Shown here one piece after another: positions 3,419 through 17,940 of a stretch of DNA of 64,000 bases; within the stretch, counting starts at the first letter, position 1; the number at the start of each line of letters is the position of its first letter. Source of the stretch: an uncultured Candidatus Actinomarina sp. GTDB lineage: Bacteria; Actinomycetota; Acidimicrobiia; Actinomarinales; Actinomarinaceae. The stretch lies in assembly GCA_902634185.1 (NCBI GenBank), contig CACPJC010000003.1, positions 64,001-128,000 on the forward strand. The letters are read 5' to 3'. The notes beneath the pieces were generated by a model. It was not told where the DNA came from. It ran no database searches and worked only from the letters and a program-made list of their open reading frames with translations. The translations under genes and the position numbers were made by a program.

Positions 3419-4213
3419 TTAAGCTGAACAAATATTGATGTAATCGGTTAAATACTCTTGTTCACTTGAATCTAATTCACCTGCTGTTCTGTAGTGATTG
3501 TATGCACCACCGTAATAACGCACAAGTGCATCAACTAAATATTCTTCCCCTCCAAAAAAGTCTCGTGCATCTTGACGATATAACGTTGTTGAATTTTTTG
3601 GACAGTTCCTAGTTAAATATGTAAATGCATGAAGTGATTCATGAAGTAAAACATCATAAGAAACTGCAGCTGAAAAAGCTCTATCCGATATCCAAATAGA
3701 AAGTTTCCATTCTGCATTTTTGGTTCCATCTGAGCTTGTTCCGCTTGGATCCCATACTCCATAAGGACACCTCCCAACAAGTGAAGCCCCATATTGATGA
3801 CAACCATTAATAACACTTATATTGTTTGTTTCGATTATTTGTAACAGTAATGGAGGTAATTGTTTGACTAGTTCACCCAAAGTAGTTTGATTTGTGCCTT
3901 CGAATCCTGCGTATTCTGCAAATGGACCTGTGTAAACCGTTGTGGTTGTGGTTGAAGTGGTTGTTGTTGAAGTTGTAGATGTTGTGGTTGAAGTGGTTGT
4001 TGTTGAAGGTGGAACAGTTGTTGTTGAAGGTGGAACAGTGGTTGTAGTTGAAGATGTAGTAGTCGTTGGCTCAAGAGTTGTTGTAGTAGTATCAATGACT
4101 TGAATTTCTTCTTGTTCAAGTACAATTGTCTCTTCTTCTTGATTAAAGTTTATTACAACTAAAGAAACAATTAATAACAGAAAAATAAATGAGTTTATAT
4201 ATCTGTTGTTCAT
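3419..4213 (-). CDS. Membrane-anchored protein with Thr-rich stalk and small zincin-like (HExxH) domain
   Basis: N-terminal hydrophobic segment, long Thr/Ser/Pro tract, VLLHESLHAF followed by EEYLVD. Confidence 0.7.
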   Translation of the reverse strand: MNNRYINSFIFLLLIVSLVVINFNQEEETIVLEQEEIQVIDTTTTTLEPTTTTSSTTTTVPPSTTTVPPSTTTTSTTTSTTSTTTTSTTTTTVYTGPFAEYAGFEGTNQTTLGELVKQLPPLLLQIIETNNISVINGCHQYGASLVGRCPYGVWDPSGTSSDGTKNAEWKLSIWISDRAFSAAVSYDVLLHESLHAFTYLTRNCPKNSTTLYRQDARDFFGGEEYLVDALVRYYGGAYNHYRTAGELDSSEQEYLTDYINICSA

Positions 4214-5655
4214 CTTCTGGCCTTTACTTTTATAAATAAACCTAGAATCAAAATTGTTAAAATGTATCCAATTAGGCCAATTGCAAAGGTTAAAGAAAAT
4301 GAACCCATACTTAATAAATCTTGTTGCATGTTGGCAAATTCACTATCTGGAGGAACAATAAGAATTCTTATAAACAACCACAAACCCAATATAAAACTTA
4401 AAAGTGGAAAGATTTTAAAAACACCTTGAGAGTCGGTAAGAGATTCAAATAACTCATTTCCACCACCCGGCAGTGACTTAAACAAAACTCCTTCTAAACA
4501 CATCAAATAGCTAAGGGCTGCAGCTGCCGTCAGTACCGTTGAGTCTTTAATAAGAGGTATAGATGTTAGATAGAAGAAACCAAACCCTGCAAGACTCAAA
4601 GCAATTGTTGAGTAAAATTTTGGTGAAAGTTTTGCTATATTTCTTCTTCCAGTGATGTACGCAGATGCAAAAAATCCAAATATAAATCCAATTGGCATTT
4701 CAAAATAGATGAAAGCAAGAGTAGAAATCCCCGCAAAAAATATTGCTTGAGGAGCCCATTTAATTCTTACTTTTTGCTTAAAAACTTTACTCTCAATTAA
4801 TCCCTCTGTCCCCTCGTAAAACAAAGTAACAGCAATTAACCCAACGAGTGCAGCAATAAATATTGCTAAATTTTCAAGATCTAAAGTTAGATCAGCTCCT
4901 TCCTCAACAAAGCCTATTAAAAATGCAGTTGAAAAAAGAACGAAAAGAACTTTAACTAAAGTAATAAGCTTCTTTGAGCCACGAATGTTTCTATCTTTGG
5001 CAAACCATCGAATATTATTCGTTGAAATAATTTTGTTAAACCATTCTTGTAAGAGCAACACTACATAAAACAAAAAGATGATTCCCGTTGAAACAATTAC
5101 AGCGATGCTGTTTTTTTCTTGATCTGTCAGATCAACATCCTCAAATAAGGGAATAGACGTAATCAACTCATTTGTTATTTCAATATTTAAAAAATCAGTT
5201 TCCTCGATGACGGGTGGTGGAAGAGTTGTTGTAGTTGTTGAAGTGGTAGTTGTTGTTGAAGTTGTTGTTGGTGGTGGAATTATTTTTAATAATTTTTGAT
5301 TTATGTATTCCATCTCAACTATTTTTTTACATTCCTCTGCAGGACAATCAGGCCCAGTAACATTCTCAAATTCAGTAATAAAAACGCGTATTGTGACCCT
5401 TACATAATCTGGATAGCAACATAGCTCAAGTTCGCCATCTGGGCTTTCAAGTTGAATTGTTTCAATATTGTTGTCGTGTGAAATTTGGAGGACGATGTCA
5501 TCATAGTCCTCAAAATTTATAGACCATTCAACTAATATCTTTTCATTTTCTAATCGTTTTATATCAAGCTTTATATTTTCGGTATCTAAAGTTGGAGTAA
5601 AAAATGAACCATTGAAAAAGAGGAGGAATAATAAAAATATTAGACTTTTTTTCAT
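4210..5655 (-). CDS. Polytopic membrane protein, resembles FGLLP-motif membrane proteins; secreted N-terminal domain plus Thr-rich linker
   Basis: Signal-like N terminus, Cys-containing small domain, PPPTTTSTTT linker, roughly 9-10 hydrophobic segments, and GFIFGF / LEGVLFKSLPGG motifs. Family call is from recall only. Confidence 0.55.
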   Translation of the reverse strand: MKKSLIFLLFLLFFNGSFFTPTLDTENIKLDIKRLENEKILVEWSINFEDYDDIVLQISHDNNIETIQLESPDGELELCCYPDYVRVTIRVFITEFENVTGPDCPAEECKKIVEMEYINQKLLKIIPPPTTTSTTTTTSTTTTTLPPPVIEETDFLNIEITNELITSIPLFEDVDLTDQEKNSIAVIVSTGIIFLFYVVLLLQEWFNKIISTNNIRWFAKDRNIRGSKKLITLVKVLFVLFSTAFLIGFVEEGADLTLDLENLAIFIAALVGLIAVTLFYEGTEGLIESKVFKQKVRIKWAPQAIFFAGISTLAFIYFEMPIGFIFGFFASAYITGRRNIAKLSPKFYSTIALSLAGFGFFYLTSIPLIKDSTVLTAAAALSYLMCLEGVLFKSLPGGGNELFESLTDSQGVFKIFPLLSFILGLWLFIRILIVPPDSEFANMQQDLLSMGSFSLTFAIGLIGYILTILILGLFIKVKARR

Positions 5656-5658
5656 TGA

Positions 5659-6288
5659 CTACTTTTGGATTTTAGTTGCCTTTTCAAAAATTTCATTTAC
5701 ATTTTCTACATACCATTCATCTGTATATTTAGACCAGACGGGATAACTTGGATCATAACGTAGCCATAGAAATGTGGATCCATTGAATAATTGAAAAATA
5801 TCATCAGCAAGTTCATCAGCAGAATCAGCATCATAATTTTTGCAGAGAGATTTGAGAACATCATAGGGTTCGCGCTGTATCCATTTTCCCGATGCTTGAA
5901 TATCTCTAACTTCAAACCAAGCAAATCTAATTGCATTACCAAGTTCAACAACTTTATTTGCGATTGTGTCCAAAAACATGGTTATAGCGGCACCAGGCTC
6001 TGGGGAGGTTTGTAAAAATGCATTCAACTCATCAGCAACATCTTTAAATCCTAATTGAAATAGTGATCCATAAACATCTAATTTATTCTCAGGAAAATGA
6101 TTGTAAGCAGTTGCAACAGACACTCCAGCATGCTTTGCAATTTGTGAGACAGTGACTTTTTCATGAGAAACGAGTGGATTATTAAATAGCTCGACTGCAC
6201 TATTTATAAGTTTTTTATGCGCCTCATCATATGTTTTTTGTGCACGTAATGATCTTCCATCCTGTTTTTTTAATGGTTCAATGCTCAT
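5659..6288 (-). CDS. TetR/AcrR family transcriptional regulator
   Basis: DGRSLRAQKT...LINSAVELF...VTVSQIAKHAGVSVATAYNHFPENK helix-turn-helix. Confidence 0.92.
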   Translation of the reverse strand: MSIEPLKKQDGRSLRAQKTYDEAHKKLINSAVELFNNPLVSHEKVTVSQIAKHAGVSVATAYNHFPENKLDVYGSLFQLGFKDVADELNAFLQTSPEPGAAITMFLDTIANKVVELGNAIRFAWFEVRDIQASGKWIQREPYDVLKSLCKNYDADSADELADDIFQLFNGSTFLWLRYDPSYPVWSKYTDEWYVENVNEIFEKATKIQK

Positions 6289-9200
6289 TTAATTACCACT
6301 TTCTATCCTAGTAAGAATCCCTGAAACAACGAGTCTTTGCCTAGCAGAGTACCTAGGGTGACAAGTTGTCAATGTCAGCCTGTCATCACCTCGATTAAAA
6401 AGAACATAATCTCCTGTGTTAGCATCAACCACTTCTATATCATCCACAATGTAATGGTATTTATTTGACCCATATGTTAAATAAATCTCATCTCCAATTT
6501 CGACCAAATCTAATCTACTGAAAGGGGCACCATATGTTGTCCTATGGCCTGCAATTCCAACATTTCCACCTGAACCCGGTAGTTTTGTCCCAAGATAGTG
6601 TCCTGGACCAAATTGCAAATTAAGTTCATCAGTACCTGAAACAACATATTGATTTACGTTTATACCTGGAATTTCAAGAAGACCGAATATTTCAGGTTGA
6701 AATTCATCAATCTTTGCACTTTGGTCAATGATGGTAAAATCTTGCAAAGTTTCAAAAACAGGAATGTCACTTTGGAATAAGCGAAGAGGATTTGAAAAAA
6801 TTGTAGGAGGATCTACGTCCTTTATTTCCTCACCTAGATAGATTTGTTCAAGATAAGCTTGAGCATTGTCTTGTTGAACATTTGATAAAAACATTTGTTG
6901 TGTTGCATAAATACCAAAACCCATACCTGTAATTATCGATAAAACAGCAAATCCAAGAGCAGGTCGTTTTAATTTTTTTCTATCAAAAAATTTTCTGTTA
7001 ATTTTTTTTGTGTCTTTTTTTCGAGAAAATACCTTTTTCTCCGCGATTTTTGCATCGAGCTCATTACCAGAATATATAATTTGAAAGTTATTTGAAATTA
7101 GACCCAAACGCTCTTCAAGAATTTCTTTTGTAAGTTCTGTATTTTCTTCCTCGCAAATAGATTTTATGTTTTCAATTGCGACTAGAGTATATTGAAGCTC
7201 ACTATCAAGTGCTTGTATCTCTGATTGATAAGTTGTAAAACTCTTTGCATATGGAGCAAATTTATTTATATCAATACTAATTTCTACTTTTTCTTGTATT
7301 AGTTTCTCAATTTTTGTTTTTAATTTGAAGGCATGCTTATAAATATCCTCTAGCGAAATTTCACTTTCCATTAGTTTTCTTTTTCGATAAGATGTAAAAA
7401 GTATTACACCACCAACTAAAAATACTGAACCGCTTATGACAATATAGTCTAAATTTATTCCTGTAGCTGCCAAGGCTATACTATCCTCTCGATAGATGTA
7501 GGTAACGTTGTAACTACCATCAGTGAAATATATGTCATCATCATCATCCCACTCTAGAAAGTCATTTCCAGTTTCATCAGTAAGAGGTGCTTCACATATA
7601 TCATCCTCTTCTAATATCATATCCTCACAAAAGTCATCCACTAATGGATCCGTTGGGTCTGGATCCGTTGGGTCAACTATACACTCAAGAAGTTCTTGTA
7701 AGTTTGTTGGATTACAAAATTCTTCTGGAGCAGGATCCGTTGGGTTTATAGGATCAGGATCTCTTGGATCAATTGGACCTGGATCTGGATCTGTAGGATC
7801 AGTTGTTGTAGTTATTGTAGGATCAGTTGTTGTAGTTATTGTAGGATCAGTTGTTGTAGTTGTTGGGCAATCAACTGTAAAGCTTGGACCCCAACGTTTC
7901 CAACCGCCTGAAAAAGAATTAGAAGTTGTAGAGGTTTTGTATCTCCATCTAACGTTTTGTCCGCTTGGAACATTTACAGATCCCCTTTCTGAGCTACCTG
8001 GTGGAACAGATCGATTAGAAACGAGTGTTGACCAGTTTTTTCCACCATCTAGGGAATACTCAGCTAAGAAATAAGCATTCGCATTTGAAGAGTCGGAGTT
8101 AGCCATATTGAAATGTATGAGTTTTGCACCTCCTGAACATTCCTCTCGTGTATTTGAAACAGAAGGGTTAATTATTGGAGGTCCTGGCAGTGTTGTTGTA
8201 GTTGTTGGACAATCAACTGTAAAGTCTGGACCCCAACGTTTCCAACCGCCTGAAAAAGAATTAGGAGTTGTCGAGGTTTTGTATCGCCATCTAACGTTTT
8301 GTCCGCTTGGAACATTTACAGAGGCCATTTCTGAGCTACCTGGTGCAACAGATTGATTAGAAACGAGTGTTGACCAGCTTTCCCCACCATCTAGGGAGTA
8401 CTGAGCTAAGAAATAAGCATTTGCATTTGAAGAGTCTGAGTTAGCCATATGGAAGTGTGTGAGTTTTGCACCTCCAGAACAAGCATTTCGAGTATTTGAA
8501 ACAGAAGGGTTAATTGTTGGAGGTCCTGGCAGTGTTGTTGTGGTCGTTGGAGACGGATCATCAATACAATCTAAAACTTTCTTGGTACCACCTTTTGTTT
8601 TTCTACCACTTAGTTCATCTTTAATAATAAAACGAAGTTTATATGTAGATCCATTTGGGACAGATAAAAGTGTAGTTAAGTCTCGTGTTTCTCCAGCAGC
8701 AATACTAAAAGTTTGATCAACAACTTTGGCTTTGTTTATTCTAATTCTCATTCTAATTGTTATGCCAACAGTTGACCTTGAGTTATCTACAATTAAACCA
8801 ATTCTCGCAGTTCCATCATCATTACATTCCATGAAGTTTGCAATCCTAAAATCTACTCTTGGAATTTCAACTGTTGTAGTAGTAATTTCCGGCAGTGTCG
8901 TAGTAGTTGTTGTAGTTGTAGTAGTTGTAGTTGTAGTTGTAGTAGTTGTAGTAGTTGTAGTTGTAGTAGTAGTGGTTGTTGTTACAACACAGCTAGCCGT
9001 ATATGAAAGAGTAGGATCTACGCCTGGGATATCTGTATCTTCAGTCACCCAAGTACTACTGTCATGAGCGCCTCCAGATTTTCTTGAACTATATCTCCAT
9101 TGAATACTTTCTCCATTAGCTAATGCGGGAGCAGAATACGTCTCCGATGAAGTAGCTGGTACCTCTTCATCATCTTTCAATTGTGTCCAGTTAGAGCCAC

Positions 9201-12200
9201 CATCAGTTGAGTATTCCACCCTATAAAAGACTGAGACAGTCGAATCAGAACCGCTACTAAGAGTTATTGAAGGTGTTTGTGTCTGAGAATCAGAACATGA
9301 TCCTAGTGATGTTGAAACACTAGCGCACGATATCGTAAGCTTCGATCCTATCTCTGTCCATGTTGACCCACCATCAGTTGAATACCTATGTTCACGTCCA
9401 GTACCATTTGCTATTGCAGTATTTACCGCAAATTCTTGTGTAGCGCCAGCATTTATTGACTTACCACTGTCTTCACCGGTAACACTGCCTCCAAAATATG
9501 CCCAATCCCCAACATTTCCAGTCACCGCATTGGTTGCTCTTTTTTGTACTAAAAATGTAATAGCGACATTACTTCCGCTGTTGTCGACAGTTATTTTAAT
9601 TTTACCCATTGTGCCGCCCTGGCTTGTGCCGTTATTTTTACAACCATTTGTTTCGTGAGAAACAGCCGGAGCAATAACGGGACAATCAATAGTTATTGTT
9701 GAAAGTGTTACCTCTGATTGGCTGAGTCCCTCTGATGAGTTAGCAACAGAGTATTTTATGATTACCGAGGTATCGTGACTTAGTGCTGGTACGGAAAGTG
9801 AGGAGGAGTCTGTCGCTCCAGCTCCAACGGTTGTAGCAGTTAATACTGTAAAGTTTGATCCCCCGTCAGTTGAGTAGCTGACGGTGAATGTTCCAGCAGC
9901 GGTTGAATTTGTATTTATAAGAGTAATTGGGATTGCTGCACTTCCACTCGAACAACTTGCAGCAGTTGCTGTGGCAGTAGCATTAAGTATGGGGCAATCT
10001 ATCTCAATACTGCTTAGGTTGGTTGTTGAAGCAGATGAAAAGTCGGTACTTGATGAGGTCTGATAACGAATATAGACGGTAGTGTCGTTTGTAAATGATG
10101 AACCTGAGAGACTAACAGTAGAGGTTGAGTCTGCTCCAACTAAAACATGAGATCCTCCGATACCGTCTGTCCAGGTTGAGTTATCTGTAGAGTATTGAAC
10201 TTTAAAATAATTACCAGAACCCTGTCCAGTATTGTCAAGGAGTACGTTTATAGGTGCTCCCCCACCTGAACATGTTCCATGCGTTGCAGAGACTGCTGGT
10301 GTTGTACAACTGACTGTGGCACTATTTAAACTAGCACCAGTGACATAATCTCCTGAGAATGATCCAGAAACCGTAGAGGTTTTATATCTCCACTGAATTG
10401 CAGTACCGTTATTGACAGTTTGCGTCACTGTATCTGATCCACCAACCGTAACCGATTTACTTGCTTCTTTTTCAACCCAGTTTGATCCACCGTCTATTGA
10501 GTACTCAATTAGGAAATACGCAGTAGCTTGTGATGAACCACTGTTTGAGATAGCTAATGTTGATGTCTTTGAAGCTCCACTACAACTAGCTGATAAACTC
10601 TGTGAACCAGAAGTTGTAATATTACATGAAACATCTGAACTTGCACTTCCAGTAGCAGTAGGAGTTCCTGTAAACGTTGCACTTGTTGTCGATTCTTCAT
10701 ATCTCCAGGTGATGTTTGAGCCAACCGGGACGCTATGCGTCAATGTTTCTGTGCTATCAACACCAACAGACTGATTAGCTTCCTTCACTTGCCAGGCACC
10801 GCTATCAATCTTGTACTCAACTTTTACATACGCTGTTGTTGTTGCAGAGGATGAGTTTGTAATTGCAAAACTTGATGTTGCGCTACCACTGGAACAAGTT
10901 CCAAGTGTAGCTGAAACACTTACGTCTATAACAGGACAGTCAACAGTTGCACTATTTAGATCACTACTTGTGACATAACTTCCTGAGTATGATCCTGAAG
11001 TTGTAGAGGTTTTATATCTCCATTGTATAGCTGAATTATGTGGTACAGACTGTGTAAGTGTTGCTGAGCCATTATTATTTACAGTTTGATTGGCTGCTTT
11101 CTCTGTCCAGTTAGATCCGCCATCTAAAGAGTACTCAACAAGGACATAAGCTACAGCATTTGCTGAATCAGAGTTATTAATAGTTAATGTAGAGGTTTTT
11201 GCTCCACTAGAACAACTTCCAAGGGACTGTGATGCACTGACATCTATTATTGGACAATCAACAGTTGCACTGTTCATATCACTACTTGTGACATAACTTC
11301 CTGAGAATGATCCTGAAGTTGTAGAAGACTTATATCTCCACTGAATAGCTGCATCGTGAGATACAGATTGTGTCAGTGTTTCAGATGCGTTTTTTGCAAC
11401 GGACTGGTTCGATGCTTTCTCTGTCCATGTTGACCCACCATCAACGGAGTATTCAACTAGGAAGTACGCTGTTGTGTTGGCGGAGTTAGAGTTTGATAAA
11501 GTTAAAGTTGAAGTTGCTGCTCCAGCTGAACAACTACCTAATGCCTGTGATGCACTTACATCTATTACTGGACAATCAACAGTACCACTTGCAACAGTTG
11601 TGGGTGTCAGTCCTGTAAAACTAGCTGATGTATCTGAAGATGTAACTCTCCAAGTTATTGCAGAACCATGAGATACATTTTCTGAAAATAAGGAACCCGT
11701 TCCAGTTAATATAGTGGCGCTTGCATTCTTTTCTGTATAAGTCGAACCACCATCCGTTGAGTATTCTACTTTTACGTAAGCAGTTGAACCTGACGTATTC
11801 GTTACTGTAAGTGTTGATGTAGCAGTTCCAGAACCAGAACAACTACCTAAATCTTGAGAGCTTGAAACTGTTACGGCTTGAGGACAATCAACAGTTGCAC
11901 TATTCATATCATCAGCTGTGATATAACTTAGTCCCGTCCAGTTCCCTGATGTATCAGAGCTTTTATATCTCCACTGGATAGCTGACCCATCAGGTACACT
12001 AACCGTCAAAGAGGTATTTGTTTGACCATCGGAAATTGATAAGTTATCTCCTTCCTGTGCATCTGTGTGAACAGTCCAGCTTGAACCTCCATCTAGTGAG
12101 TACTCAGCAGTAACATATGCTGTTGAACCAGAACTATTTTGTAGAGAAAGGGTAGAGGTATCAGAACCAGCTGAACAACCTCCTAGTGATTGTGAATCTG

Positions 12201-15200
12201 TCAGAGATATAGCTGTAGGACAGTCAACAGTACTACTTGTTACTTCTGTACCTGAACCAGAAAATGTATTACTTGTTGAAGAAGTTAGATAGGTCCATGT
12301 AATAGTAGATCCATCAGGAACTGTTTGGGCAGCCAGTGTTGTAGAAGCACCTGCTGCAACTGATTGATTTGTGACTACTGTATTCCAGTTTCCACTATCG
12401 ATTTTGTATCGAACATAAAAATATGCTGTTGTATTTGCTGATCCAGAGTTAGATAAAGTTAAAGTTGAATTTTGAGATCCTCCAGAACAGCTACCATCAA
12501 GTGATTGGGATACAGAGGGGTCAATATATGGGCAATCAATTGTATCGCTATTTACTATAGTGGCGTCACCGCTAAAATAACCACTTGTAGTTGATGTCTG
12601 ATAATACCATTTAGCATAAGAGCCATCCGCAATCGGTAATGTGACGGTCACGGAGCTACCTGCAGCCACTGCTATATTGAAGTTACTATCTCCCGACGAT
12701 ACGGTCAAATTAGATGATGATAAACCTCCTGATCCATCAAGTTGGTACCTTATCTTTACGTAGACAGTTGAATTTGCTGATGCGGAGTTTGATAAAGTGA
12801 CCGTTACTGTTGCTGAACCAGCGGAACAACTACCGACTGATTGAGCAAAAGAGAAATCTGTATATACACAATCAACAGTTGCACTATTCATATCACTAGC
12901 TGTCACATAACTTAGTCCCGTCCAGCTCCCTGACGCGTTAGAGCTTTTGTATCTCCATTGGATAGCTGATCCATGAGGTACGCTTACTGTTAAAGAGGTG
13001 TTCGTTTGACCATTGGTAATTGTTAAATTGTCTGCTTCCTGTGCGTCTGTGTGTACAGTCCAAGTAGACCCGCCATCGGTTGAGTACTCAGCTGTGACAT
13101 ACGCTGTTGATCCAGAAGTATTTTGAAGAGAAAGTGTAGATGTAGCAGAACCAGCTGAGCAACTACCAAGTGATTGTGAATCTGTCAGAGTTACTGCAGT
13201 AACACAGTCCACCGTTAATGCCGTACCATCTGGAGAGGTATAGCTTCCAGAAGTTGGATCCGATGATGCATCAGCTCGAGCTCGCCAAGATACCTGATAC
13301 CCATGTGGTTGGGCGGATAATGAACGTGTAATCGATGCACCTTGAGCTAATTCAATTCCAGTTAAATTGTCAGTCCAATCAGATATATCACTGCCGTCTA
13401 AAGTGAGTTTGTACTGAAGGTCGACAAAAATTGAACCGTTAGCAGTGTTGGTGATTGTAGCTGAAGGAACAGCTGAACCAGCTGAGCATGAACCCATAGC
13501 ATCTGTAATTGTAAATGTTGCCGTTGCGCAGTTAACTGTTGAGCTATTCATGTCACTAGCTGTGATGTAACTTAGTCCTGTCCAATCACCTGATGTATCA
13601 GAGCTCTTGTACCTCCATTGAATTGATGAGCCGTGAGAAACACTGACCGTCAGCGAGGTATTCGTCTGACCATTAGTAATAGTTAAATTATCTGCTTCCT
13701 GTGCGTCAGTGTGAACAGTCCAACTAGAACCACCATTGGTTGAGTACTCAGCAGTAACATACGCGGTTGAACCTGAACTATTTTGTAGTGATAGTGTAGA
13801 GGTAGCAGAGCCTTCAGAACAACTACCAAGTGATTGTGAGTCAGTGAGGCTAACTGCTGTTGGATCAGGAGAACAACCGGAGGCATTAATCGTTATTGAA
13901 GAAAGAGCAGTCGTATTTGAAGTCGGTTCACGCAAATCATAAGTAGTGTTTTCTGCATACCAACTAATTACCACTGTAGCACCATTAGATTGACCTGGAA
14001 CATCTAGGGAGGTATTGCTCGATGATGACGAGACAGAAGTGCCTGATGTCAGAGATTGTGAGCTTCCACCATTAACTGTATATGTAACAACAAAGTTAGT
14101 AGTTACGTTAGAACTTAAGTTATTTAAGGTAACATCTATTTTACGATTTGACCCATCACAACTTCCCTGAGTAGCTGTAACAGTGGGGGCGAAATCAACA
14201 TTGGGTGCACCTTCGTGGCATGCAGCACCATCATTTTTATTTGCTCCAGATTGTACTGTGCCTAGACTTGAACTCCAGCTCCAACTACTTCCGTTATATT
14301 CAGCTTTTCGAACATCTCCAGTTGAATTATGCACAAAATAAGCATGTTCTCCACCAAATCCAAACGCAGCACCAACATCTGAATTGCTCCATGAATATGG
14401 TGAAGTTGGTGAGCTTAATGAGTGGTCAGTTATTTCTATTGTGAAAGAACTCCCAGATACAATTAAGTATCCAAGCATTACTTGATCATTTACATTGTCA
14501 TAAGCCACAAAATCTGCTTCGTGGTTTACACCTCCACTAGAGAATGTTGGAAAGTTTGAACCATCTCTCAACCAGGTAAAGTCTTTTGCTTTAGCTAAAT
14601 TACCTGCAACAGAGTTTGTGTTTACTGTAAGAGAGGAAGTTACATCTGTATAATTTGAAGAGTTAGTGTAATCTGTACCATCTATACGAATTAAGAGTGG
14701 TGATGAGCCCTTTAAGAACCCATTACCTGAAAGTAAATAACCAGTTCCGTTGTATTCAAAATAGGATGCAGCATTATTATCAGCAGAACTAAAACTGGCT
14801 ATTAACGATGGGTTGTTATCAGCAATATTATCGTTGTTAGCATCAGTTGCATCCATATAGTAAAGTGTCCTATTTTTACTCGAATCTTTCCGAATCATCC
14901 AGAGATTTCCAAGATTATCCATCATCGAGTTGTTCCACTCATTTGAATTTGATCCTGGAAGGTTTTGATACTCGAATGTTGCTCCTGATGGTGTGGCAGG
15001 ACTAGAACTCACAAGATTTCCTGAGTTACTGTCCCACCCGTATACTTCAACTTTGTCATCTGAAGAGTTGTATTTTGTTTGATAACCTAATGGATTTCCA
15101 TCTGAGTTAAAACATGAGAGCTGTGAAGATGCAAAAGCAGGTTCAGGATCAACTGTCTCAATGGTCACATATGCAAGAGAGACAATCATTAAAAATGACA

Positions 15201-15300
15201 TAACTAAATTGAAAGTTTTCTTATTAAAGACGAACGAAAACAGCTTTTTACACAAAAGCACAACAAAGTCGAAGGCGTTTAATATTTTTATATTCCCCAC
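6289..15300 (-). CDS. Giant (3003 aa) repetitive surface protein with internal LAATG sorting signal, fused to a C-terminal class E-like sortase
   Basis: Signal peptide ending PAFA; N-terminal domain ending NDGAAC; about 19 Cys-paired ~100-115 aa repeats; 29-Thr tract; LAATG-TM-RKRK; second TM; sortase motifs GPGHY, IAGHRTTYGAPF and LTLTTCHPRYSARQRL. Confidence 0.88.
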   Translation of the reverse strand: MGNIKILNAFDFVVLLCKKLFSFVFNKKTFNLVMSFLMIVSLAYVTIETVDPEPAFASSQLSCFNSDGNPLGYQTKYNSSDDKVEVYGWDSNSGNLVSSSPATPSGATFEYQNLPGSNSNEWNNSMMDNLGNLWMIRKDSSKNRTLYYMDATDANNDNIADNNPSLIASFSSADNNAASYFEYNGTGYLLSGNGFLKGSSPLLIRIDGTDYTNSSNYTDVTSSLTVNTNSVAGNLAKAKDFTWLRDGSNFPTFSSGGVNHEADFVAYDNVNDQVMLGYLIVSGSSFTIEITDHSLSSPTSPYSWSNSDVGAAFGFGGEHAYFVHNSTGDVRKAEYNGSSWSWSSSLGTVQSGANKNDGAACHEGAPNVDFAPTVTATQGSCDGSNRKIDVTLNNLSSNVTTNFVVTYTVNGGSSQSLTSGTSVSSSSSNTSLDVPGQSNGATVVISWYAENTTYDLREPTSNTTALSSITINASGCSPDPTAVSLTDSQSLGSCSEGSATSTLSLQNSSGSTAYVTAEYSTNGGSSWTVHTDAQEADNLTITNGQTNTSLTVSVSHGSSIQWRYKSSDTSGDWTGLSYITASDMNSSTVNCATATFTITDAMGSCSAGSAVPSATITNTANGSIFVDLQYKLTLDGSDISDWTDNLTGIELAQGASITRSLSAQPHGYQVSWRARADASSDPTSGSYTSPDGTALTVDCVTAVTLTDSQSLGSCSAGSATSTLSLQNTSGSTAYVTAEYSTDGGSTWTVHTDAQEADNLTITNGQTNTSLTVSVPHGSAIQWRYKSSNASGSWTGLSYVTASDMNSATVDCVYTDFSFAQSVGSCSAGSATVTVTLSNSASANSTVYVKIRYQLDGSGGLSSSNLTVSSGDSNFNIAVAAGSSVTVTLPIADGSYAKWYYQTSTTSGYFSGDATIVNSDTIDCPYIDPSVSQSLDGSCSGGSQNSTLTLSNSGSANTTAYFYVRYKIDSGNWNTVVTNQSVAAGASTTLAAQTVPDGSTITWTYLTSSTSNTFSGSGTEVTSSTVDCPTAISLTDSQSLGGCSAGSDTSTLSLQNSSGSTAYVTAEYSLDGGSSWTVHTDAQEGDNLSISDGQTNTSLTVSVPDGSAIQWRYKSSDTSGNWTGLSYITADDMNSATVDCPQAVTVSSSQDLGSCSGSGTATSTLTVTNTSGSTAYVKVEYSTDGGSTYTEKNASATILTGTGSLFSENVSHGSAITWRVTSSDTSASFTGLTPTTVASGTVDCPVIDVSASQALGSCSAGAATSTLTLSNSNSANTTAYFLVEYSVDGGSTWTEKASNQSVAKNASETLTQSVSHDAAIQWRYKSSTTSGSFSGSYVTSSDMNSATVDCPIIDVSASQSLGSCSSGAKTSTLTINNSDSANAVAYVLVEYSLDGGSNWTEKAANQTVNNNGSATLTQSVPHNSAIQWRYKTSTTSGSYSGSYVTSSDLNSATVDCPVIDVSVSATLGTCSSGSATSSFAITNSSSATTTAYVKVEYKIDSGAWQVKEANQSVGVDSTETLTHSVPVGSNITWRYEESTTSATFTGTPTATGSASSDVSCNITTSGSQSLSASCSGASKTSTLAISNSGSSQATAYFLIEYSIDGGSNWVEKEASKSVTVGGSDTVTQTVNNGTAIQWRYKTSTVSGSFSGDYVTGASLNSATVSCTTPAVSATHGTCSGGGAPINVLLDNTGQGSGNYFKVQYSTDNSTWTDGIGGSHVLVGADSTSTVSLSGSSFTNDTTVYIRYQTSSSTDFSSASTTNLSSIEIDCPILNATATATAASCSSGSAAIPITLINTNSTAAGTFTVSYSTDGGSNFTVLTATTVGAGATDSSSLSVPALSHDTSVIIKYSVANSSEGLSQSEVTLSTITIDCPVIAPAVSHETNGCKNNGTSQGGTMGKIKITVDNSGSNVAITFLVQKRATNAVTGNVGDWAYFGGSVTGEDSGKSINAGATQEFAVNTAIANGTGREHRYSTDGGSTWTEIGSKLTISCASVSTSLGSCSDSQTQTPSITLSSGSDSTVSVFYRVEYSTDGGSNWTQLKDDEEVPATSSETYSAPALANGESIQWRYSSRKSGGAHDSSTWVTEDTDIPGVDPTLSYTASCVVTTTTTTTTTTTTTTTTTTTTTTTTTTTTTLPEITTTTVEIPRVDFRIANFMECNDDGTARIGLIVDNSRSTVGITIRMRIRINKAKVVDQTFSIAAGETRDLTTLLSVPNGSTYKLRFIIKDELSGRKTKGGTKKVLDCIDDPSPTTTTTLPGPPTINPSVSNTRNACSGGAKLTHFHMANSDSSNANAYFLAQYSLDGGESWSTLVSNQSVAPGSSEMASVNVPSGQNVRWRYKTSTTPNSFSGGWKRWGPDFTVDCPTTTTTLPGPPIINPSVSNTREECSGGAKLIHFNMANSDSSNANAYFLAEYSLDGGKNWSTLVSNRSVPPGSSERGSVNVPSGQNVRWRYKTSTTSNSFSGGWKRWGPSFTVDCPTTTTTDPTITTTTDPTITTTTDPTDPDPGPIDPRDPDPINPTDPAPEEFCNPTNLQELLECIVDPTDPDPTDPLVDDFCEDMILEEDDICEAPLTDETGNDFLEWDDDDDIYFTDGSYNVTYIYREDSIALAATGINLDYIVISGSVFLVGGVILFTSYRKRKLMESEISLEDIYKHAFKLKTKIEKLIQEKVEISIDINKFAPYAKSFTTYQSEIQALDSELQYTLVAIENIKSICEEENTELTKEILEERLGLISNNFQIIYSGNELDAKIAEKKVFSRKKDTKKINRKFFDRKKLKRPALGFAVLSIITGMGFGIYATQQMFLSNVQQDNAQAYLEQIYLGEEIKDVDPPTIFSNPLRLFQSDIPVFETLQDFTIIDQSAKIDEFQPEIFGLLEIPGINVNQYVVSGTDELNLQFGPGHYLGTKLPGSGGNVGIAGHRTTYGAPFSRLDLVEIGDEIYLTYGSNKYHYIVDDIEVVDANTGDYVLFNRGDDRLTLTTCHPRYSARQRLVVSGILTRIESGN
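6292..6690 (-). other. Sortase catalytic domain (His-Cys-Arg triad intact) within the giant ORF
   Basis: LEIPGIN...VVSG...GPGHYLGT...GNVGIAGHRTTYGAPF...TLTTCHP...RQRLVV. Confidence 0.93.
7375..7473 (-). other. Cell-wall sorting signal LAATG + hydrophobic helix + RKRK, internal to the giant ORF
   Basis: LAATG at 7459-7473 (residues 2610-2614), then INLDYIVISGSVFLVGGVILFTSY, then RKRK. Confidence 0.82.
7793..7862. repeat. 24-bp tandem repeat (~3 copies) encoding ITTTTDPT
   Basis: gtaggatcagttgttgtagttatt repeated. Confidence 0.85.
7858..8541. repeat. Recent 342-bp tandem duplication (two near-identical 114-aa modules)
   Basis: caatcaactgtaaag at 7868 and 8210 (period 342 bp); both copies encode INPSVSNTR..CSGGAKL.HF...WKRWGP.FTVDC. 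Confidence 0.9.
8896..8982. repeat. ACN trinucleotide tract encoding 29 consecutive Thr
   Basis: 87 nt of agt/tgt/cgt/ggt triplets on the + strand. Confidence 0.92.
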
Positions 15301-15354: not shown

Positions 15355-16683
15355 TCAGGAAAACCTTGCTTTTATAGATTCAATGATTTGATCTTTTTGA
15401 GGCTCTAGAGTCTCAAAATCCTCATCCTGATCAATCTCAGAACCAGGAAAATCTTTAATAAGTGGAGATATCACATTGCTGAACTTTTCAGGTGATGCAG
15501 TAGCTACAGCGACTGTTGGAACACTTGAGTTTATATCTATAGCCATTCTTAAAGAGGTGACTGTATGAGGATCAAAAACAATATTAAAAAGATCATTGAA
15601 TGTTTTTATTTCCTCTTTTATCTTTTCATCATCAAAGGTCTGTGAGCTAAATATATGTTGTAATTTATCTCTGCTACCTTCACTTAACATTCCTTTTTTA
15701 TTTTCATTAAGATCTTGATAGAAAGATGATGCATCTGATTCAAAGTCATATATTAATCTCTCTAAACTAGATGGGATCTGAATATCCATACTTGGGGCAA
15801 CACTGGGTTTTGTTGTTTGTGGTTCTAGGATTCCAGAATCAATAAAACGCTTCAAGACATCATTAACATTTGTTGTACACATGATCTGATTTATTTTCAG
15901 TCCATGTGATCTACCAAACCATGCTGAGTAAGCATTACCAAAATTTCCAGACGGTATTGCAACATTTATTGGTGAAGTAAACTGTTTGGTCAACCAGACA
16001 TAATAAGTGACCTGTCCCATAACTCGAAGCCAGTTGATTGAGTTCAAAGAGATAATTCTTCTCTCAAATGGATTGTCAGATAATATCTCTTTTGCAATTC
16101 TTTGACAGTCATCATATGACCCTTCAACTGCAATATTGAAAACATTATCTTTGATAACACTTGTCATTTGTTTTCTTTGATATTCACTAATTTTGTTTGC
16201 GGGATGAAGAACGACAATATCAATATTGTCTGAATCTTTTACAGCTTGGATAGCAGCACTCCCTGTATCACCGCTGGTTGCTACAAGAACGAGCCCTCTC
16301 TCTCCTAATTCACTCAGTCTTTTACCAGCAATTGCTCCTAGAGGTTGTAGAGCATAATCTTTAAATGATTTTGTAGGTCCATGAAAAAGCTCCATGACGA
16401 CGGTTGTATCATTTAAATCTTTAAGTACTGGTTCTGGAGAGTTTTCAAATCCAGAATATAGTGATAAGCCATCAACATATTTAGCTGAGTTTTTATCTAG
16501 TGCAATAAAGATTGTTTTTACAAAATCCTCATAACTTAAGTCCTCTTCAGTTAAATGATTAAGGTTATCAATTGTTAATGAATCAGGTAAATAAAGGCCT
16601 TTATCAGGTGCTAGCCCTGAAAGAATGACATCTTCAAAAGAGATGGTCTCTTTATGTCCCCTGGTTGATTGATACTGTACCAC
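15355..16683 (-). CDS. thrC: Threonine synthase (long form)
   Basis: YQSTRG N terminus, ELFHGPTKSFKD, ATSGDTGSAA, NSINWLR, PSGNFGN. Confidence 0.97.
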   Translation of the reverse strand: MVQYQSTRGHKETISFEDVILSGLAPDKGLYLPDSLTIDNLNHLTEEDLSYEDFVKTIFIALDKNSAKYVDGLSLYSGFENSPEPVLKDLNDTTVVMELFHGPTKSFKDYALQPLGAIAGKRLSELGERGLVLVATSGDTGSAAIQAVKDSDNIDIVVLHPANKISEYQRKQMTSVIKDNVFNIAVEGSYDDCQRIAKEILSDNPFERRIISLNSINWLRVMGQVTYYVWLTKQFTSPINVAIPSGNFGNAYSAWFGRSHGLKINQIMCTTNVNDVLKRFIDSGILEPQTTKPSVAPSMDIQIPSSLERLIYDFESDASSFYQDLNENKKGMLSEGSRDKLQHIFSSQTFDDEKIKEEIKTFNDLFNIVFDPHTVTSLRMAIDINSSVPTVAVATASPEKFSNVISPLIKDFPGSEIDQDEDFETLEPQKDQIIESIKARFS

Positions 16684-17940
16684 TTAGACGTAGACGCGAA
16701 GTGTTGAGGTCACTGTTGTGACGGAATCTAGTGCTGATATTTGATCAATAGAATTCTTGATATCTTTCTCTGGTGCCTCGTGGGTAACTAAAACAAGTTC
16801 TGCTTTATCTCCCCTGCCTTCTTGGATAACACTCTCAATACTTACGTTATTTTCACCAAAAGTTCCAGAGATTTTTGCCAAAACACCAGGTTCATCATTG
16901 ACGGAAAGCCTTATAAACATGCTTGATACCACATCCTCAAAACTTTTCATTTCGCCTTTAAATTCTCTTAGTGGATACCAGTTTGTTTGATCACTGCTTA
17001 GTTGATGGCAAGCACTTAACACGTCTCCAATAATTGCACTTGCTGTTGGTTCAGCACCTGCGCCTGGTCCTGAAAACACCAACTGATTTATATTATCTCC
17101 TTCAACGACAACAGCATTTAAAGCTCCTCTTATTGCAGCAAGAGGATGTTTCGTATCAATTAAGACAGGATGAACCCTTGCATTAAAGCCATTCTTATTT
17201 TCAATCTGTGCAACTAATTTAATTGTCTTTCCGAGCCTTGCTGCCCATTCAAAATCTTCTTTTGTAATGCCAGAAATTCCATCGGTAAAGAGTTCGTCTG
17301 CACTTGGTGATACTCCAAAACAAAGAAGCGATAAAATTACTGCTTTGTATTTTGCATCTATTCCTTCAACATCATTTGTTGGATCAGGTTCTGCATATCC
17401 TAGTTCCTGTGCAGTCGATAGTGCATCTTCGTAGGAACTTCCCTCTTCCATAGCAGTCAGCATATAGTTGGTTGTTCCGTTTATGATCCCGAGTACCTTT
17501 GACAACTCTTCGCCTCTAAGACTTTCTATGAGTGGTTTAAGTACAGGTATACCTGCAGCGACTGCTGCCTCAAAATATAAACAAGCATTATTTTCTTTTG
17601 CAGTATTAATTAGATCAGATCCAGAATCGGCAATGATATCTTTATTTGCTGTTATTACTGCTTTACCATTTTGCAAGATTGCCTTTATGTACTCTTTACC
17701 GGGATCAATACCTCCAAGAACTTCTATAACAAGATCAATTGAATCATCATTTAAAATGTCATCAAAATTGTCAGTGAGAATATCGTCTGGTATTTCTCTT
17801 TTTTTACTTTTATCTTTTACTAAAACTCTTTTTACATTTAATCCAACTATTCCTTTATCTAAGTTCATGAGGCGTGAGATAACAGCTGAACCAATATTGC
17901 CAGCACCCATAACAGCTACATTAAATGTTTTATTTTCCAT
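16684..17940 (-). CDS. hom: Homoserine dehydrogenase with C-terminal ACT domain
   Basis: GAGNIG, VITANK, FEAAVAAGIP, GIINGTTNY, GYAEPDPTNDVEG, GPGAG..PTASA; ACT motif DEPGVLAKI. Confidence 0.97.
   Translation of the reverse strand: MENKTFNVAVMGAGNIGSAVISRLMNLDKGIVGLNVKRVLVKDKSKKREIPDDILTDNFDDILNDDSIDLVIEVLGGIDPGKEYIKAILQNGKAVITANKDIIADSGSDLINTAKENNACLYFEAAVAAGIPVLKPLIESLRGEELSKVLGIINGTTNYMLTAMEEGSSYEDALSTAQELGYAEPDPTNDVEGIDAKYKAVILSLLCFGVSPSADELFTDGISGITKEDFEWAARLGKTIKLVAQIENKNGFNARVHPVLIDTKHPLAAIRGALNAVVVEGDNINQLVFSGPGAGAEPTASAIIGDVLSACHQLSSDQTNWYPLREFKGEMKSFEDVVSSMFIRLSVNDEPGVLAKISGTFGENNVSIESVIQEGRGDKAELVLVTHEAPEKDIKNSIDQISALDSVTTVTSTLRVYV

Follow-up and report, generated by a model that had tools for sequence, protein, structure and literature searches.

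Architecture of the Locus

Few free-living marine bacteria are as small or as abundant as Candidatus Actinomarina. The window, that is, the whole stretch of 64,000 nucleotides of Candidatus Actinomarina DNA analyzed here, comes from a genome with a G+C content of about 35–40%, and carries on its reverse strand, at positions 6289–15300, a single open frame of 3003 amino acids (aa) with a GTG start. Its product is ordered as a signal peptide, a repeat region of roughly 2550 aa with Asp-box-like motifs, an LAATG pentapeptide, a first transmembrane helix (TM1), the basic tail YRKRK, a 114-aa domain predicted to be cytoplasmic, a second transmembrane helix (TM2) and a sortase domain. The original prediction had placed a signal peptide, repeats, a sorting signal of LAATG, helix and basic tail, a second helix and a sortase in one frame, and translation, hydropathy and Pfam searches bear this out. 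The parts of the gene and the three genes downstream of it are as follows.

15130–15300, reverse strand: N-terminal signal region, aa 1–57, with basic residues, a hydrophobic core at about aa 32–50 and the sequence AFA/SS (translation, hydropathy, flank charges)
14161–15129, reverse strand: N-terminal passenger domain, aa 58–380, with no Pfam family at E <= 0.1
8989–14160, reverse strand: about 16 tandem domains of ~105 aa each, aa 381–2104, each bounded by a Cys pair 10–18 aa apart
8896–8982, reverse strand: run of 29 threonines, aa 2107–2135 (sequence)
7861–8895, reverse strand: three more beta-rich domains, aa 2136–2480, two with an Asp-box (Pfam Reelin_subrepeat-B, E 4.3e-07; BNR, E 8.5e-06)
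7474–7860, reverse strand: Thr/Asp/Pro-rich acidic stalk and conserved pre-motif segment, aa 2481–2609 (translation, alignment)
7459–7473, reverse strand: LAATG sorting pentapeptide, aa 2610–2614 (translation)
7390–7446, reverse strand: TM1, aa 2619–2637, the hydrophobic part of the sorting signal (hydropathy; AlphaFold helix 48–76 of a 434-aa model)
7375–7389, reverse strand: basic tail YRKRK, aa 2638–2642, with no stop codon after it (translation; R70 of the alignment invariant in 31 fused sequences)
7024–7365, reverse strand: conserved domain, predicted cytoplasmic, aa 2646–2759, alpha-beta-alpha-alpha-beta (AlphaFold mean pLDDT 86.4, pTM 0.77)
6964–7023, reverse strand: basic stretch ahead of TM2, aa 2760–2779 (8 K/R in the 15 aa before TM2)
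6901–6963, reverse strand: TM2, about aa 2780–2800 (hydropathy; within the long helix 193–253 of the model)
6679–6900, reverse strand: predicted extracellular tether of ~74 aa linking TM2 to the catalytic domain (model residues 255–296, pLDDT < 50)
6289–6678, reverse strand: sortase catalytic domain, aa 2875–2994, with the last 9 residues, aa 2995–3003, and the stop codon (PF04203; key residues Tyr2902, His2919, Cys2980, Arg2989)
5659–6288, reverse strand: TetR-family regulator, 209 aa, directly downstream (PF00440, E 9.2e-07)
4210–5655, reverse strand: membrane protein, 481 aa (weak match below cut-off to NCBIfam NF041501, FGLLP motif-containing membrane protein, E 4e-13)
3419–4213, reverse strand: 264-aa protein with no Pfam match

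The true start of the giant protein may be an internal Met, at aa 34 or 38, and the putative signal cleavage site at AFA/SS is read from the sequence itself rather than from a dedicated predictor. In the passenger, an Asp-box-like YSxDGGSxW is found in many of the tandem domains, and a regular expression finds 12 Asp-box-like motifs in the full-length protein; ten fall within aa 381–2104, and the other two are at aa 2301 and 2415. The whole-protein Pfam matches to Reelin_subrepeat-B (E 1.2e-17), BNR and CHB_HEX_C are weak, BNR reaching 27.2 bits against a cut-off of 27 with no single stretch that passes. The run of 29 threonines likely serves as an extended stalk, and the pre-motif segment contains four residues (W15, D25, Y32 and E36 in the numbering of the C-terminal alignment) that are invariant in 31 fused sequences.

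Fused and Split Forms in Related Genomes

Sortases and their substrates are, in the textbook view, separate proteins that meet in the membrane. Contigs of two DNA runs and two RNA-library runs from different studies bridge positions 7360–7390, the stretch over which read mapping had been proposed, with 0 indels, and at the YRKRK site the contigs of all four runs pass without insertion, deletion or frameshift; bridging by RNA-library contigs is proof neither of transcription nor of a protein product. One RNA-library contig has a 15-base in-frame insertion after position 7644.

The comparison took in 45 public loci with 46 Actinomarina-type sortase frames, of which 30 are fused in frame, 15 are split and one is cut inside TM1. 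The fused frames share 36–98% identity with the window and come from single-cell as well as metagenome assemblies; 14 of the 30 have a closed 5' end, giving lengths of 680–2892 aa, and the gene callers of public databases likewise report fused proteins, of 783–2362 aa. In a sample of the genus, 14 of the 22 relatives searched possess a sortase, which is fused in 11 of them. Even at 36% identity, the fused C-termini (31 aligned) keep the frame, an xAxTG motif and the catalytic residues. The search that had been proposed, for sortase domains of related genomes preceded in frame by LAxTG, a transmembrane helix and a basic tail, finds this order, with an xAxTG motif, in 30 of the 46 frames, and because it recurs so often, chance is excluded. 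As judged from sequence, the gene genuinely joins a sortase substrate to its own sortase, and the fusion is conserved.

In the split form, the giant gene ends with xxxTG, a transmembrane helix, a basic stretch and a stop, and a separate sortase gene encoding two transmembrane helices abuts it. The original prediction had named exactly such a stop after the basic tail, with a separate sortase gene, as evidence against itself. The arrangement does occur, in 15 of the 46 frames, but as a distinct form with a separate sortase clade: the split sortase has its own extra N-terminal helix, so that the split pair has three helices versus two in the fusion. The split loci do not point to an error in the fused frames. 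It is extremely improbable that the fused frame was produced by faulty assembly or sequencing, or that a stop codon was lost recently, as in a pseudogene. The existence of split versions in relatives and the frameshifts in repeat or poly-Thr parts of some long-read assemblies (L046, L066) could be cited for it; the 30 fused frames stem, however, from independent assemblies of both kinds, public gene callers reproduce them, four runs bridge the junction, and simply reading through the stop of a split locus would yield one helix more than the fused form has, the topology of the latter staying consistent.

The split relatives also encode what self-processing of the fusion is predicted to leave behind, namely TM1, a basic tail, a homologous cytoplasmic domain, TM2 and a sortase. 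In a quick tree of the sortase domains, the split clade is nested among fused lineages. In an AU test, neither monophyly of the fused forms (p 0.27) nor monophyly of all split forms (p 0.27) was rejected, a result compatible with either direction, fusion or fission. Within the genus, a sortase was found only beside a giant protein or fused with one.

The three downstream genes belong to a conserved cassette. TetR homologues of 42–95% identity stand right after the fused gene in all nine fused loci examined, and homologues of the 481-aa membrane protein follow behind all nine fused and all four split loci examined. The 264-aa protein has homologues directly downstream in 6/9 fused and 4/4 split loci; no match was found in L048 or L057, and the only match in L052 lies elsewhere in the locus. 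The fusion cassette itself is variable, being absent from some genomes and present in three tandem versions in others; therefore, it is probably a locus of strain-level surface variation, which would be relevant to interactions with phages and grazers.

Sorting Signal, Membrane Helices and the Domain between Them

The tripartite sorting signal is complete, with the pentapeptide, the hydrophobic stretch and the positively charged tail in the right order. By analogy with known sortase chemistry, the cut would be expected between T2613 and G2614. The 31 fused sequences have LAATG (17), LADTG (3), LAETG (2), LANTG (4) or MADTG (5), and the A, T and G of the motif are invariant in all of them. The signal is not at the extreme C terminus, as 361 residues lie beyond the basic tail, and it is this non-terminal position that makes the protein unusual.

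TM1 is proposed to act as a stop-transfer helix, and TM2 would be a signal-anchor helix that exports the sortase domain. There are 4 K/R in the 15 aa after TM1, 8 in the 15 aa before TM2 and 0–1 in the outer flanks. Such positive-inside charges fit a predicted out-in-out topology, in agreement with the original proposal that both LAATG and the sortase are outside the membrane. The tether that follows TM2 is presumably flexible, as the low pLDDT of the model suggests.

Between the two helices, a charged linker of ~135 aa had been described. Basic stretches do flank this region, but it also holds the 114-aa domain, which is confidently predicted to fold on its own and is homologous in fused and split relatives. 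In Pfam, the domain of the window matched no family at E < 0.01, with chance-level matches only (E > 0.001). A Foldseek search of the PDB found nothing at E <= 0.001, the best Z of the wide VIA-align search was 6.9 (designed helical proteins, within background), and the ESM Atlas returned no usable match. A predicted homodimer of the domain scored 0.17 against a mark of 0.42, which counts neither for nor against a dimer. In split relatives, a RecA C-terminal domain adjoins the cytoplasmic domain.

The region just after the basic tail is also where a free sortase could arise from the same mRNA by internal initiation and do the work, the fused copy being incidental. A Met follows the tail in the window (RKRK-L-M) and in a high-GC analogue (L116, discussed below), and the split forms begin their sortase gene at the equivalent region. 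This Met is not conserved, however, relatives having L-L-S, L-I-L, L-L-Y or L-L-N at that place; with no stop before it, ribosomes on the giant protein must read on into the sortase; and the split-form sortase starts before TM1, not after it. We regard internal initiation as improbable.

The Sortase Domain and Its Presumed Substrate

The catalytic domain matches the Pfam Sortase family PF04203 over aa 2875–2994 (E 1.6e-29; 102.6 bits against a cut-off of 26.6). It contains GHR at aa 2918, TLTTC at aa 2976 (with Cys at 2980) and Arg at 2989, that is, at Cys+9, the same spacing as that of Cys320 and Arg329 in the portion of PMC5148588 that deals with SrtE1. The catalytic His, Cys and Arg are invariant in the 31 fused sequences. 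The predicted structure is the eight-stranded beta-barrel of the sortase fold, with a Foldseek probability of 1.00 to many solved sortases (e.g., SrtE 5go6, rmsd 2.4, target TM 0.78), and the matches also include 5cuw, the similarity to class C being about equal to that to class E structures.

At the sequence level, the best-scoring class is class E (NCBIfam NF033747), at 104.4 bits against a cut-off of 160. In an alignment to the PDB sequence of SrtE 5go5, GPGHY aligns with GLGHY and the GHR is aligned as well. The Tyr after GPGH, equivalent to Tyr229 of SrtE1, is invariant in the 31 fused sequences; in the section of PMC5148588 on the beta3/beta4 loop, Tyr229 is put forward as the residue that selects for Ala at P3. 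As far as sequence comparison can tell, the sortase is class-E-like. The original pairing of a class E sortase with LAxTG holds in part: the best HMM class, the Tyr229 equivalent and the Ala in the motif speak for it, while the score lies below the curated cut-off, and what ties the enzyme to LAxTG cleavage is its genetic linkage to [LM]AxTG together with the covariation of motif and enzyme.

Class C sortases polymerise pilins, and the comparable Foldseek similarity to class C could be taken to mean that the enzyme builds a pilus-like or surface-layer-like assembly, linking passengers to one another or to some other surface polymer instead of to peptidoglycan. The cell envelope of Actinomarina, uncharacterised according to the main-text passages of PMC7771536, would leave room for this. 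On the other side, the cassette (TetR regulator, membrane protein and 264-aa protein) showed no second pilin-like gene, and both the best HMM match and the Tyr point to a housekeeping class E enzyme. Polymer assembly is accordingly given little weight.

Motif position 2 (P3) and the Tyr229-equivalent residue vary together. The pair Ala–Tyr occurs 36 times (31 fused and 5 split), Pro–Ile 6 times (split) and Gly–Tyr once, and there is no Ala–Ile or Pro–Tyr pair among the motif/enzyme pairs compared. This covariation amounts to few independent changes, since the Pro/Ile cases all belong to a single subclade, which comprises 7 split sequences. The genome of the window, which is 83% complete, has one sortase match, and among its 1266 open frames of at least 100 aa no other convincing C-terminal sorting signal was found; at this completeness, a further substrate or sortase could lie in the unassembled part.

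These results bear on whether the protein is cut at all. It could simply be held by TM1 and TM2 and never cleaved, its sortase domain serving another substrate or being a non-catalytic module. The motif is undocked in an AlphaFold2 model of the 434-aa C-terminus (mean pLDDT 65.9), from which nothing can be read at a motif pLDDT below 50; another substrate could be missing from the incomplete genome; and catalysis has been lost in some sortase-like domains, a distant locus (L121) having a degenerate site at the position of the Cys motif. On the other hand, six residues (Ala, Thr and Gly in the motif; His, Cys and Arg in the enzyme) are the same in all 31 fused sequences, even where identity drops to 36%; the residue at P3 changes in step with the specificity residue; the 1266 frames offered no second candidate substrate; and in the genus the sortase was found only beside or fused to a giant protein. 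An uncleaved protein is, on this evidence, unlikely.

Proposed Mechanism of Self-Processing

We favour, with moderate confidence, the reading that the fusion protein processes its own sorting signal, either in cis or between copies, and that the passenger is passed to peptidoglycan; export, cleavage, the choice between cis and trans and the acceptor are all things we infer from sequence. In this scheme, the signal peptide would take the repeat passenger of ~2550 aa through Sec until TM1 and the basic tail halt the transfer, leaving LAATG just outside the membrane. The 114-aa domain would remain cytoplasmic, TM2 would re-insert as a signal anchor, and the class-E-like sortase domain would be exported on its flexible tether of ~74 aa. 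Cys2980 could then attack the T–G bond of LAATG within its own molecule or in an adjacent copy, and a peptidoglycan precursor would receive the passenger. The leftover would be a two-helix membrane sortase, like the free-standing two-helix sortases of relatives. Peptidoglycan is a plausible acceptor, because homologues of penicillin-binding proteins and of MraY are present in the genome. Against self-processing, a 1:1 fusion of enzyme and substrate is an odd economy for a catalytic enzyme, and the cell-wall structure of these bacteria is given as unknown in the relevant lines of PMC7771536.

A more far-reaching interpretation can be offered tentatively, and we hold it to be possible rather than probable. 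The protein would be a natural single-chain anchoring device that acts strictly in cis and makes one cut upon insertion. From inside the cell, the stub with its conserved cytoplasmic domain would then signal or control how the surface is assembled. Such a design would have evolved on more than one occasion within the Actinomycetota, in Actinomarina, in the high-GC genomes G264 and G437, and in a helix-less form in P0014 and P0015.

If the fusion works as proposed, it would give a defined 1:1 pair of enzyme and substrate with which to ask whether sortases act in cis, and would help in testing how the helix and tail of a sorting signal present the motif. It would also offer a compact natural module for self-anchoring or self-cleavage in display technology. 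As far as we found, it would be the first statement on how Candidatus Actinomarina builds its surface, the envelope being described as unknown in part of the text of PMC7771536.

Comparison with Known Systems

The original prediction had named no described system of this architecture, and we found none in the papers searched on sortases and on Actinomarina. Searches returned no paper with both Actinomarinales and sortase, nor one with both Actinomarina and 'giant protein'. In the main text of PMC7771536 and of the bioRxiv preprint 'Actinomarina, resolved', the words sortase, LPXTG and giant are absent. In the sortase review PMC8225981, 'fused' does not occur and 'fusion' occurs only in the reference list, and the listings of a broader search of the sortase literature contained no natural substrate fusion.

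At least two high-GC actinobacterial genomes of different families (L116 of G264 and L120 of G437) have an analogous fusion of LAYTG, transmembrane helix, basic tail, transmembrane helix and sortase, the survey of PF04203 proteins in Actinomycetota covering 150 of 1115 matches. Their order is that of the protein of the window, with a repeat passenger, LAYTG, a helix, a poly-Arg tail, a second helix and a sortase with GPGHY; a signal region is present in L116, and L120 runs off the end of its contig. They differ in their cytoplasmic linker, which is ~15–35 aa long and has no folded domain, and in their passenger repeats, which are of the DUF11 type (PF01345). L116 appears to be identical to a 2370-aa NCBI protein named only 'sortase'. 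The long open frames around sortases in five other high-GC cases (L117, L118, L119, L121 and L123) were rejected as fusions, having no in-frame sorting motif before the enzyme, and are read as chance-open frames or ordinary one-helix sortases. In L122, LPNTG, a helix and RR share a frame with a sortase, with a masked stretch between them.

Among characterized enzymes, SrtE1 of Streptomyces coelicolor, which acts with chaplins (class E, LAxTG), is similar in its catalytic domain with His, Cys and Arg, in the Arg at Cys+9, in the Tyr right after the beta3 His and in the Ala at P3 of the linked motif. In the protein of the window, by contrast, substrate and enzyme form one polypeptide, whose sortase part has a second membrane helix that SrtE1 lacks. 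The membrane helix of SrtE1 is preceded by a cytoplasmic extension required in vivo, as stated in an extract of PMC5148588, whereas the cytoplasmic part here is a folded domain with no family match; counted against the residue numbers quoted there, the beta3/beta4 loop is five residues shorter here.

Sortase and substrate genes can also stand side by side. The class GN marine sortase (NCBIfam TIGR03784) has a single neighbouring target, and the split Actinomarina loci, with one sortase and one linked substrate, are arranged in exactly this way. In contrast to such pairs, the fused form is one chain, in which the helix and tail of the sorting signal double as the first helix of the enzyme.

Single chains with both enzyme and recognition motif have been engineered: the BISOP fusions of sortase, LPXTG and target protein cleave themselves, as the abstract-level account in PMC2901362 has it. 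They differ in being artificial and soluble, with the sortase N-terminal to the motif and with neither a membrane topology nor a cell-wall acceptor. A natural counterpart is provided by Bifidobacterium class E sortases that have a SafA-like transmembrane domain fused at their C terminus (from selected passages of PMC9282373). As in the present protein, a natural class E sortase is joined there to a membrane partner for which there is otherwise a separate, adjacent gene; according to the same passages, that partner is a small protector against signal peptidase, not a substrate, and it lies C-terminal to the enzyme.

Architecture of the Fused Gene

A single open frame of 3003 codons with a GTG start occupies window positions 6289–15300 on the minus strand, and its G+C content runs between 32 and 44% along its length. 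The original prediction had described a giant surface protein that carries its sorting signal and its sortase in one polypeptide, and every element that it listed was found in place:

aa ~1–57: signal region, basic/hydrophobic, ending AFA/SS (translation, hydropathy)
after the signal region: 320-aa domain, no family match in Pfam
then: ~16 domains in tandem, ~105 aa apiece, with a cysteine pair at the bounds of each and an Asp-box-like YSxDGGSxW in many
after the tandem domains: poly-Thr run of 29 threonines
C-terminal to the poly-Thr run: three further beta-rich domains
before LAATG: acidic Thr/Asp/Pro stalk
aa 2610–2614: LAATG
aa 2619–2637: hydrophobic helix of the sorting signal (TM1)
aa 2638–2642: basic tail YRKRK, with no stop after it; the frame runs on
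between YRKRK and TM2: 114-aa segment, then a very basic stretch
aa ~2780–2800: second hydrophobic helix (TM2)
between TM2 and the sortase domain: tether of ~74 aa
aa 2875–2994: sortase domain (Pfam PF04203, E 1.6e-29)

Pfam matches of the tandem domains are weak (Reelin subrepeat B, BNR). The key residues of the sortase are His2919, Cys2980 (in TLTTC) and Arg2989 (Cys+9). An in-frame insertion of 15 bases lies at window 7644, in the Asp/Pro/Thr stalk before the motif, in one contig from an RNA library, which suggests that stalk length is polymorphic in natural populations.

Reality of the Fused Frame

The fused frame is not an artefact. Its sortase is the only one in the assembly to which the window belongs, which has 974 kb in 16 contigs at 83% completeness, and a sortase is present in 14 of 22 same-genus relatives, the other eight being without any match. 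In 11 of these 14, an [LM]AxTG-helix-basic element lies upstream in frame with the sortase; five are complete frames of 2536–2892 aa, one is a 776-aa frame, and the others reach contig ends. A scan of public contigs, with one genome per prokaryote species, yielded 45 Actinomarina-type loci with 46 sortase frames: 30 fused, 15 split into a giant gene and a separate sortase gene, and one cut inside TM1. Of the fused frames, 14 are closed at the 5' end (680–2892 aa) and the other 16 run into a contig end. The two samples overlap, as 15 of the 45 loci are the same contigs as in the genus sample, and these derive from single-cell genomes and metagenome bins. When 31 fused C-termini were aligned, the window included, identity fell to 36%, while all of them stay in frame and retain A, T and G in the motif, one Arg in the basic tail and the active-site His, Cys and Arg; the motif reads LAATG in 17, LADTG in three, LAETG in two, LANTG in four and MADTG in five. 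Fused proteins of 783–2362 aa are also found in public protein sets made by gene callers. Across window positions 7360–7390, where the original prediction had proposed read mapping, Logan contigs of four sequencing runs cross without insertion or deletion (X1 record 3, X6 record 27, X15 record 10, X16 record 22). These runs come from different studies, two of marine DNA and two of metatranscriptome libraries, in which presence does not amount to proven transcription. The crossing contigs show two substitutions, a Tyr-to-Ser change present in relatives too and a change in the first base of a Leu codon that, by codon reading, creates no stop. An artefact is thus an extremely improbable explanation of the fused frame.

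Topology and the Cytoplasmic Domain

Within 15 aa of TM1 there is one K/R before and four after, and around TM2 eight before and none after. By the positive-inside rule, this asymmetry would place the segment between the helices in the cytoplasm and both LAATG and the sortase outside the membrane, the topology that had been predicted. LAATG lies four residues ahead of TM1, and the tether behind TM2, mostly of low confidence in the structure model, would by inference be long enough (~74 aa) to reach the membrane-proximal motif of its own or a neighbouring chain. That no cleavage occurs at this motif is, in our view, unlikely. The inter-helix segment had been called a charged linker, which holds for its very basic stretch, but the segment also contains a 114-aa domain that is predicted to fold. 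Modelled alone with 43 homologues, this domain reaches a mean pLDDT of 86.4 and a pTM of 0.77, in the order helix-strand-long helix-helix-strand; searches of family and structure databases assigned it neither to a family nor to a fold. Since the cytoplasmic extension of SrtE1 is needed in vivo, according to PMC5148588, a role of the domain in localisation or control is plausible by analogy.

Enzyme Class and Motif Pairing

The original prediction had noted that the motif matches the preference of actinobacterial class E sortases. The best-scoring NCBIfam model is class E, but at 104.4 bits it falls below the cut-off of 160, so the enzyme is termed class-E-like rather than a class E member by the NCBIfam test. 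The structures nearest to the predicted model include solved class E enzymes (SrtE 5go6, rmsd 2.4; 5cuw, 2.5), and so do the nearest sequences (5go5, E 3.2e-16). The Tyr directly after strand beta3 (Tyr229 of SrtE1) is proposed by Kattke et al. (PMC5148588) to select Ala at P3 of LAxTG. GPGHY of the window aligns with GLGHY of SrtE, and the residue at this position tracks P3 of the fused or neighbouring motif: where P3 is Ala (31 fused and five split cases) the residue is Tyr, where it is Pro (six split cases) Ile, and where it is Gly (one case) Tyr. There are no exceptions across the scored loci, the count leaving out four split frames and one cut frame whose upstream end is frameshifted or missing. 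As the Pro/Ile cases form one subclade, this covariation, which is what cognate pairing predicts, amounts to few independent events.

Among 1266 ORFs of at least 100 aa in the own genome (83% complete), no other has a convincing C-terminal sorting signal; the single match of the scan is a 245-aa ORF with a membrane-protein-like tail. Penicillin-binding proteins and MraY are present in this genome, and lipid-linked peptidoglycan precursors should therefore exist. Transfer to another acceptor, or polymerisation, is considered improbable. Judging from these sequence features, we regard it as fairly likely that the fused sortase cuts the sorting signal of its own gene product, in the same chain or between copies, that peptidoglycan would then receive the passenger, and that the membrane would retain a two-helix sortase stub. 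The architecture is well supported and the mechanism putative.

Split Relatives and Phylogeny

The main split form, seen in 14 loci, has a giant gene whose end codes for xxxTG, a helix and RRxYRF-type residues; its stop abuts or overlaps a separate sortase gene of 543–569 codons (stop-to-stop frame). The product of this separate gene starts with a helix and its basic tail, continues through a longer cytoplasmic part and ends with another helix and the sortase. The cytoplasmic part comprises the same domain as in the window plus a RecA C-terminal domain (PF21096, E 2.1e-19), an unexpected partner of a sortase, which was seen in the split-type sortase genes of loci L067–L080 (e.g., L071:9446-11110 (+)) and is absent from fused forms. 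A second split form, in one instance, has a sortase gene of 406 codons (stop-to-stop) behind a gene ending IAATG-helix-RRRRG. Split pairs have three helices and the fusion two, so simple loss of a stop codon would invert the topology of the sortase; in the fusion, the helix and tail of the sorting signal double as the first helix of the enzyme. By analogy, a T/G cut in the fused protein would leave behind a membrane stub that corresponds to the split enzyme. We give a low probability to the alternative that internal initiation on the fused gene yields a free enzyme and that this enzyme does the work. In a catalytic-domain tree, all Actinomarina enzymes form one clade (SH-aLRT 100), and 14 split enzymes form one subclade (SH-aLRT 100) among fused lineages; AU tests reject monophyly of neither the fused nor the split form (p 0.27 each). 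The split-cassette contigs L068, L075, L078 and L079 sit in bins labelled Flavobacteriales, Gammaproteobacteria, Anaerolineales and Methanobacteriota, and are probably mis-binned Actinomarina contigs.

An Apparently Accessory Cassette

The neighbours of the fused gene in the window are:

15355–17940: hom and thrC, upstream on the coding strand
5659–6288 (-): TetR regulator, downstream
4210–5655 (-): 481-aa membrane protein, weakly FGLLP-motif-family-like, downstream
3419–4213 (-): 264-aa protein, no family match, downstream
downstream of the cassette genes: rho, rpmE and a DUF1385 gene

The TetR and 481-aa genes follow the fused gene in the same order in all nine examined fused loci, and the 264-aa gene in six of them; in 4/4 examined split loci, the split sortase is followed by homologues of both the 481-aa and the 264-aa protein. 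The conserved downstream neighbours make the unit a four-gene cassette. On one 1.02-Mb contig (L046 and L069, about 187.7–228.2 kb), the shared flanks enclose three tandem cassettes: one split with a 406-aa sortase, one fused, and one split with a 555-aa sortase. Each has a TetR gene, and overlapping frames suggest that frameshifts affect the giant genes in this assembly, which is built from long reads. G008, a member of the genus whose 1.0-Mb genome is one contig, gave no sortase match, and the cassette thus appears to be accessory and variable.

Substrate-Sortase Fusions beyond Actinomarina and Comparison with Known Systems

A phylum scan found sortases in 343 of 401 genomes, a tally that takes in 14 genomes flagged unpublished. 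Among the 150 matches listed of 1115, one lies in a 2379-aa frame of a genome with 70% G+C (L116, G264:C91), which has the order signal region, DUF11-type repeats, LAYTG, helix, RRRRPR, ~35 aa, second helix and a GPGHY sortase, and appears to be a 2370-aa NCBI protein named only 'sortase'. L120 (G437:C206), from a different family, repeats this order, its linker being ~15 aa long, and the two look like an independent analogue of the Actinomarina fusion. In two proteins from read-archive assemblies (P0014 and P0015; 893 and 900 aa), a signal peptide and a Pro/Thr-rich passenger are followed by ELAATGE and, ~45 aa on, by a sortase domain; no membrane helix lies between motif and enzyme, and these proteins may be a third kind. 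Judging from the high-GC analogues and the helix-less proteins, substrate-sortase fusion seems to have had more than one origin.

In two larger Acidimicrobiia genomes, ordinary one-helix sortases carry long acidic tails after the catalytic domain (L117 in G176, ending in two hydrophobic helices; L118 in G034, the frame as retrieved ending at a hydrophobic start), reminiscent of the SafA-like C-terminal fusion described for Bifidobacterium (PMC9282373). At L122 (G443:C175), a cupredoxin-like small protein ending LPNTG-helix-RR has a sortase in the same frame across a masked stretch.

Sortases, LAxTG signals and Asp-box repeats are already known as parts. According to the original prediction, the architecture is not known from a described system, and no description of their union in one chain was found in the search listings and main texts covered on sortases and Actinomarina. 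Against that literature, the features that appear new are the union in one chain, the use of the sorting-signal helix as the first helix of the enzyme, and the conserved cytoplasmic domain between the two.
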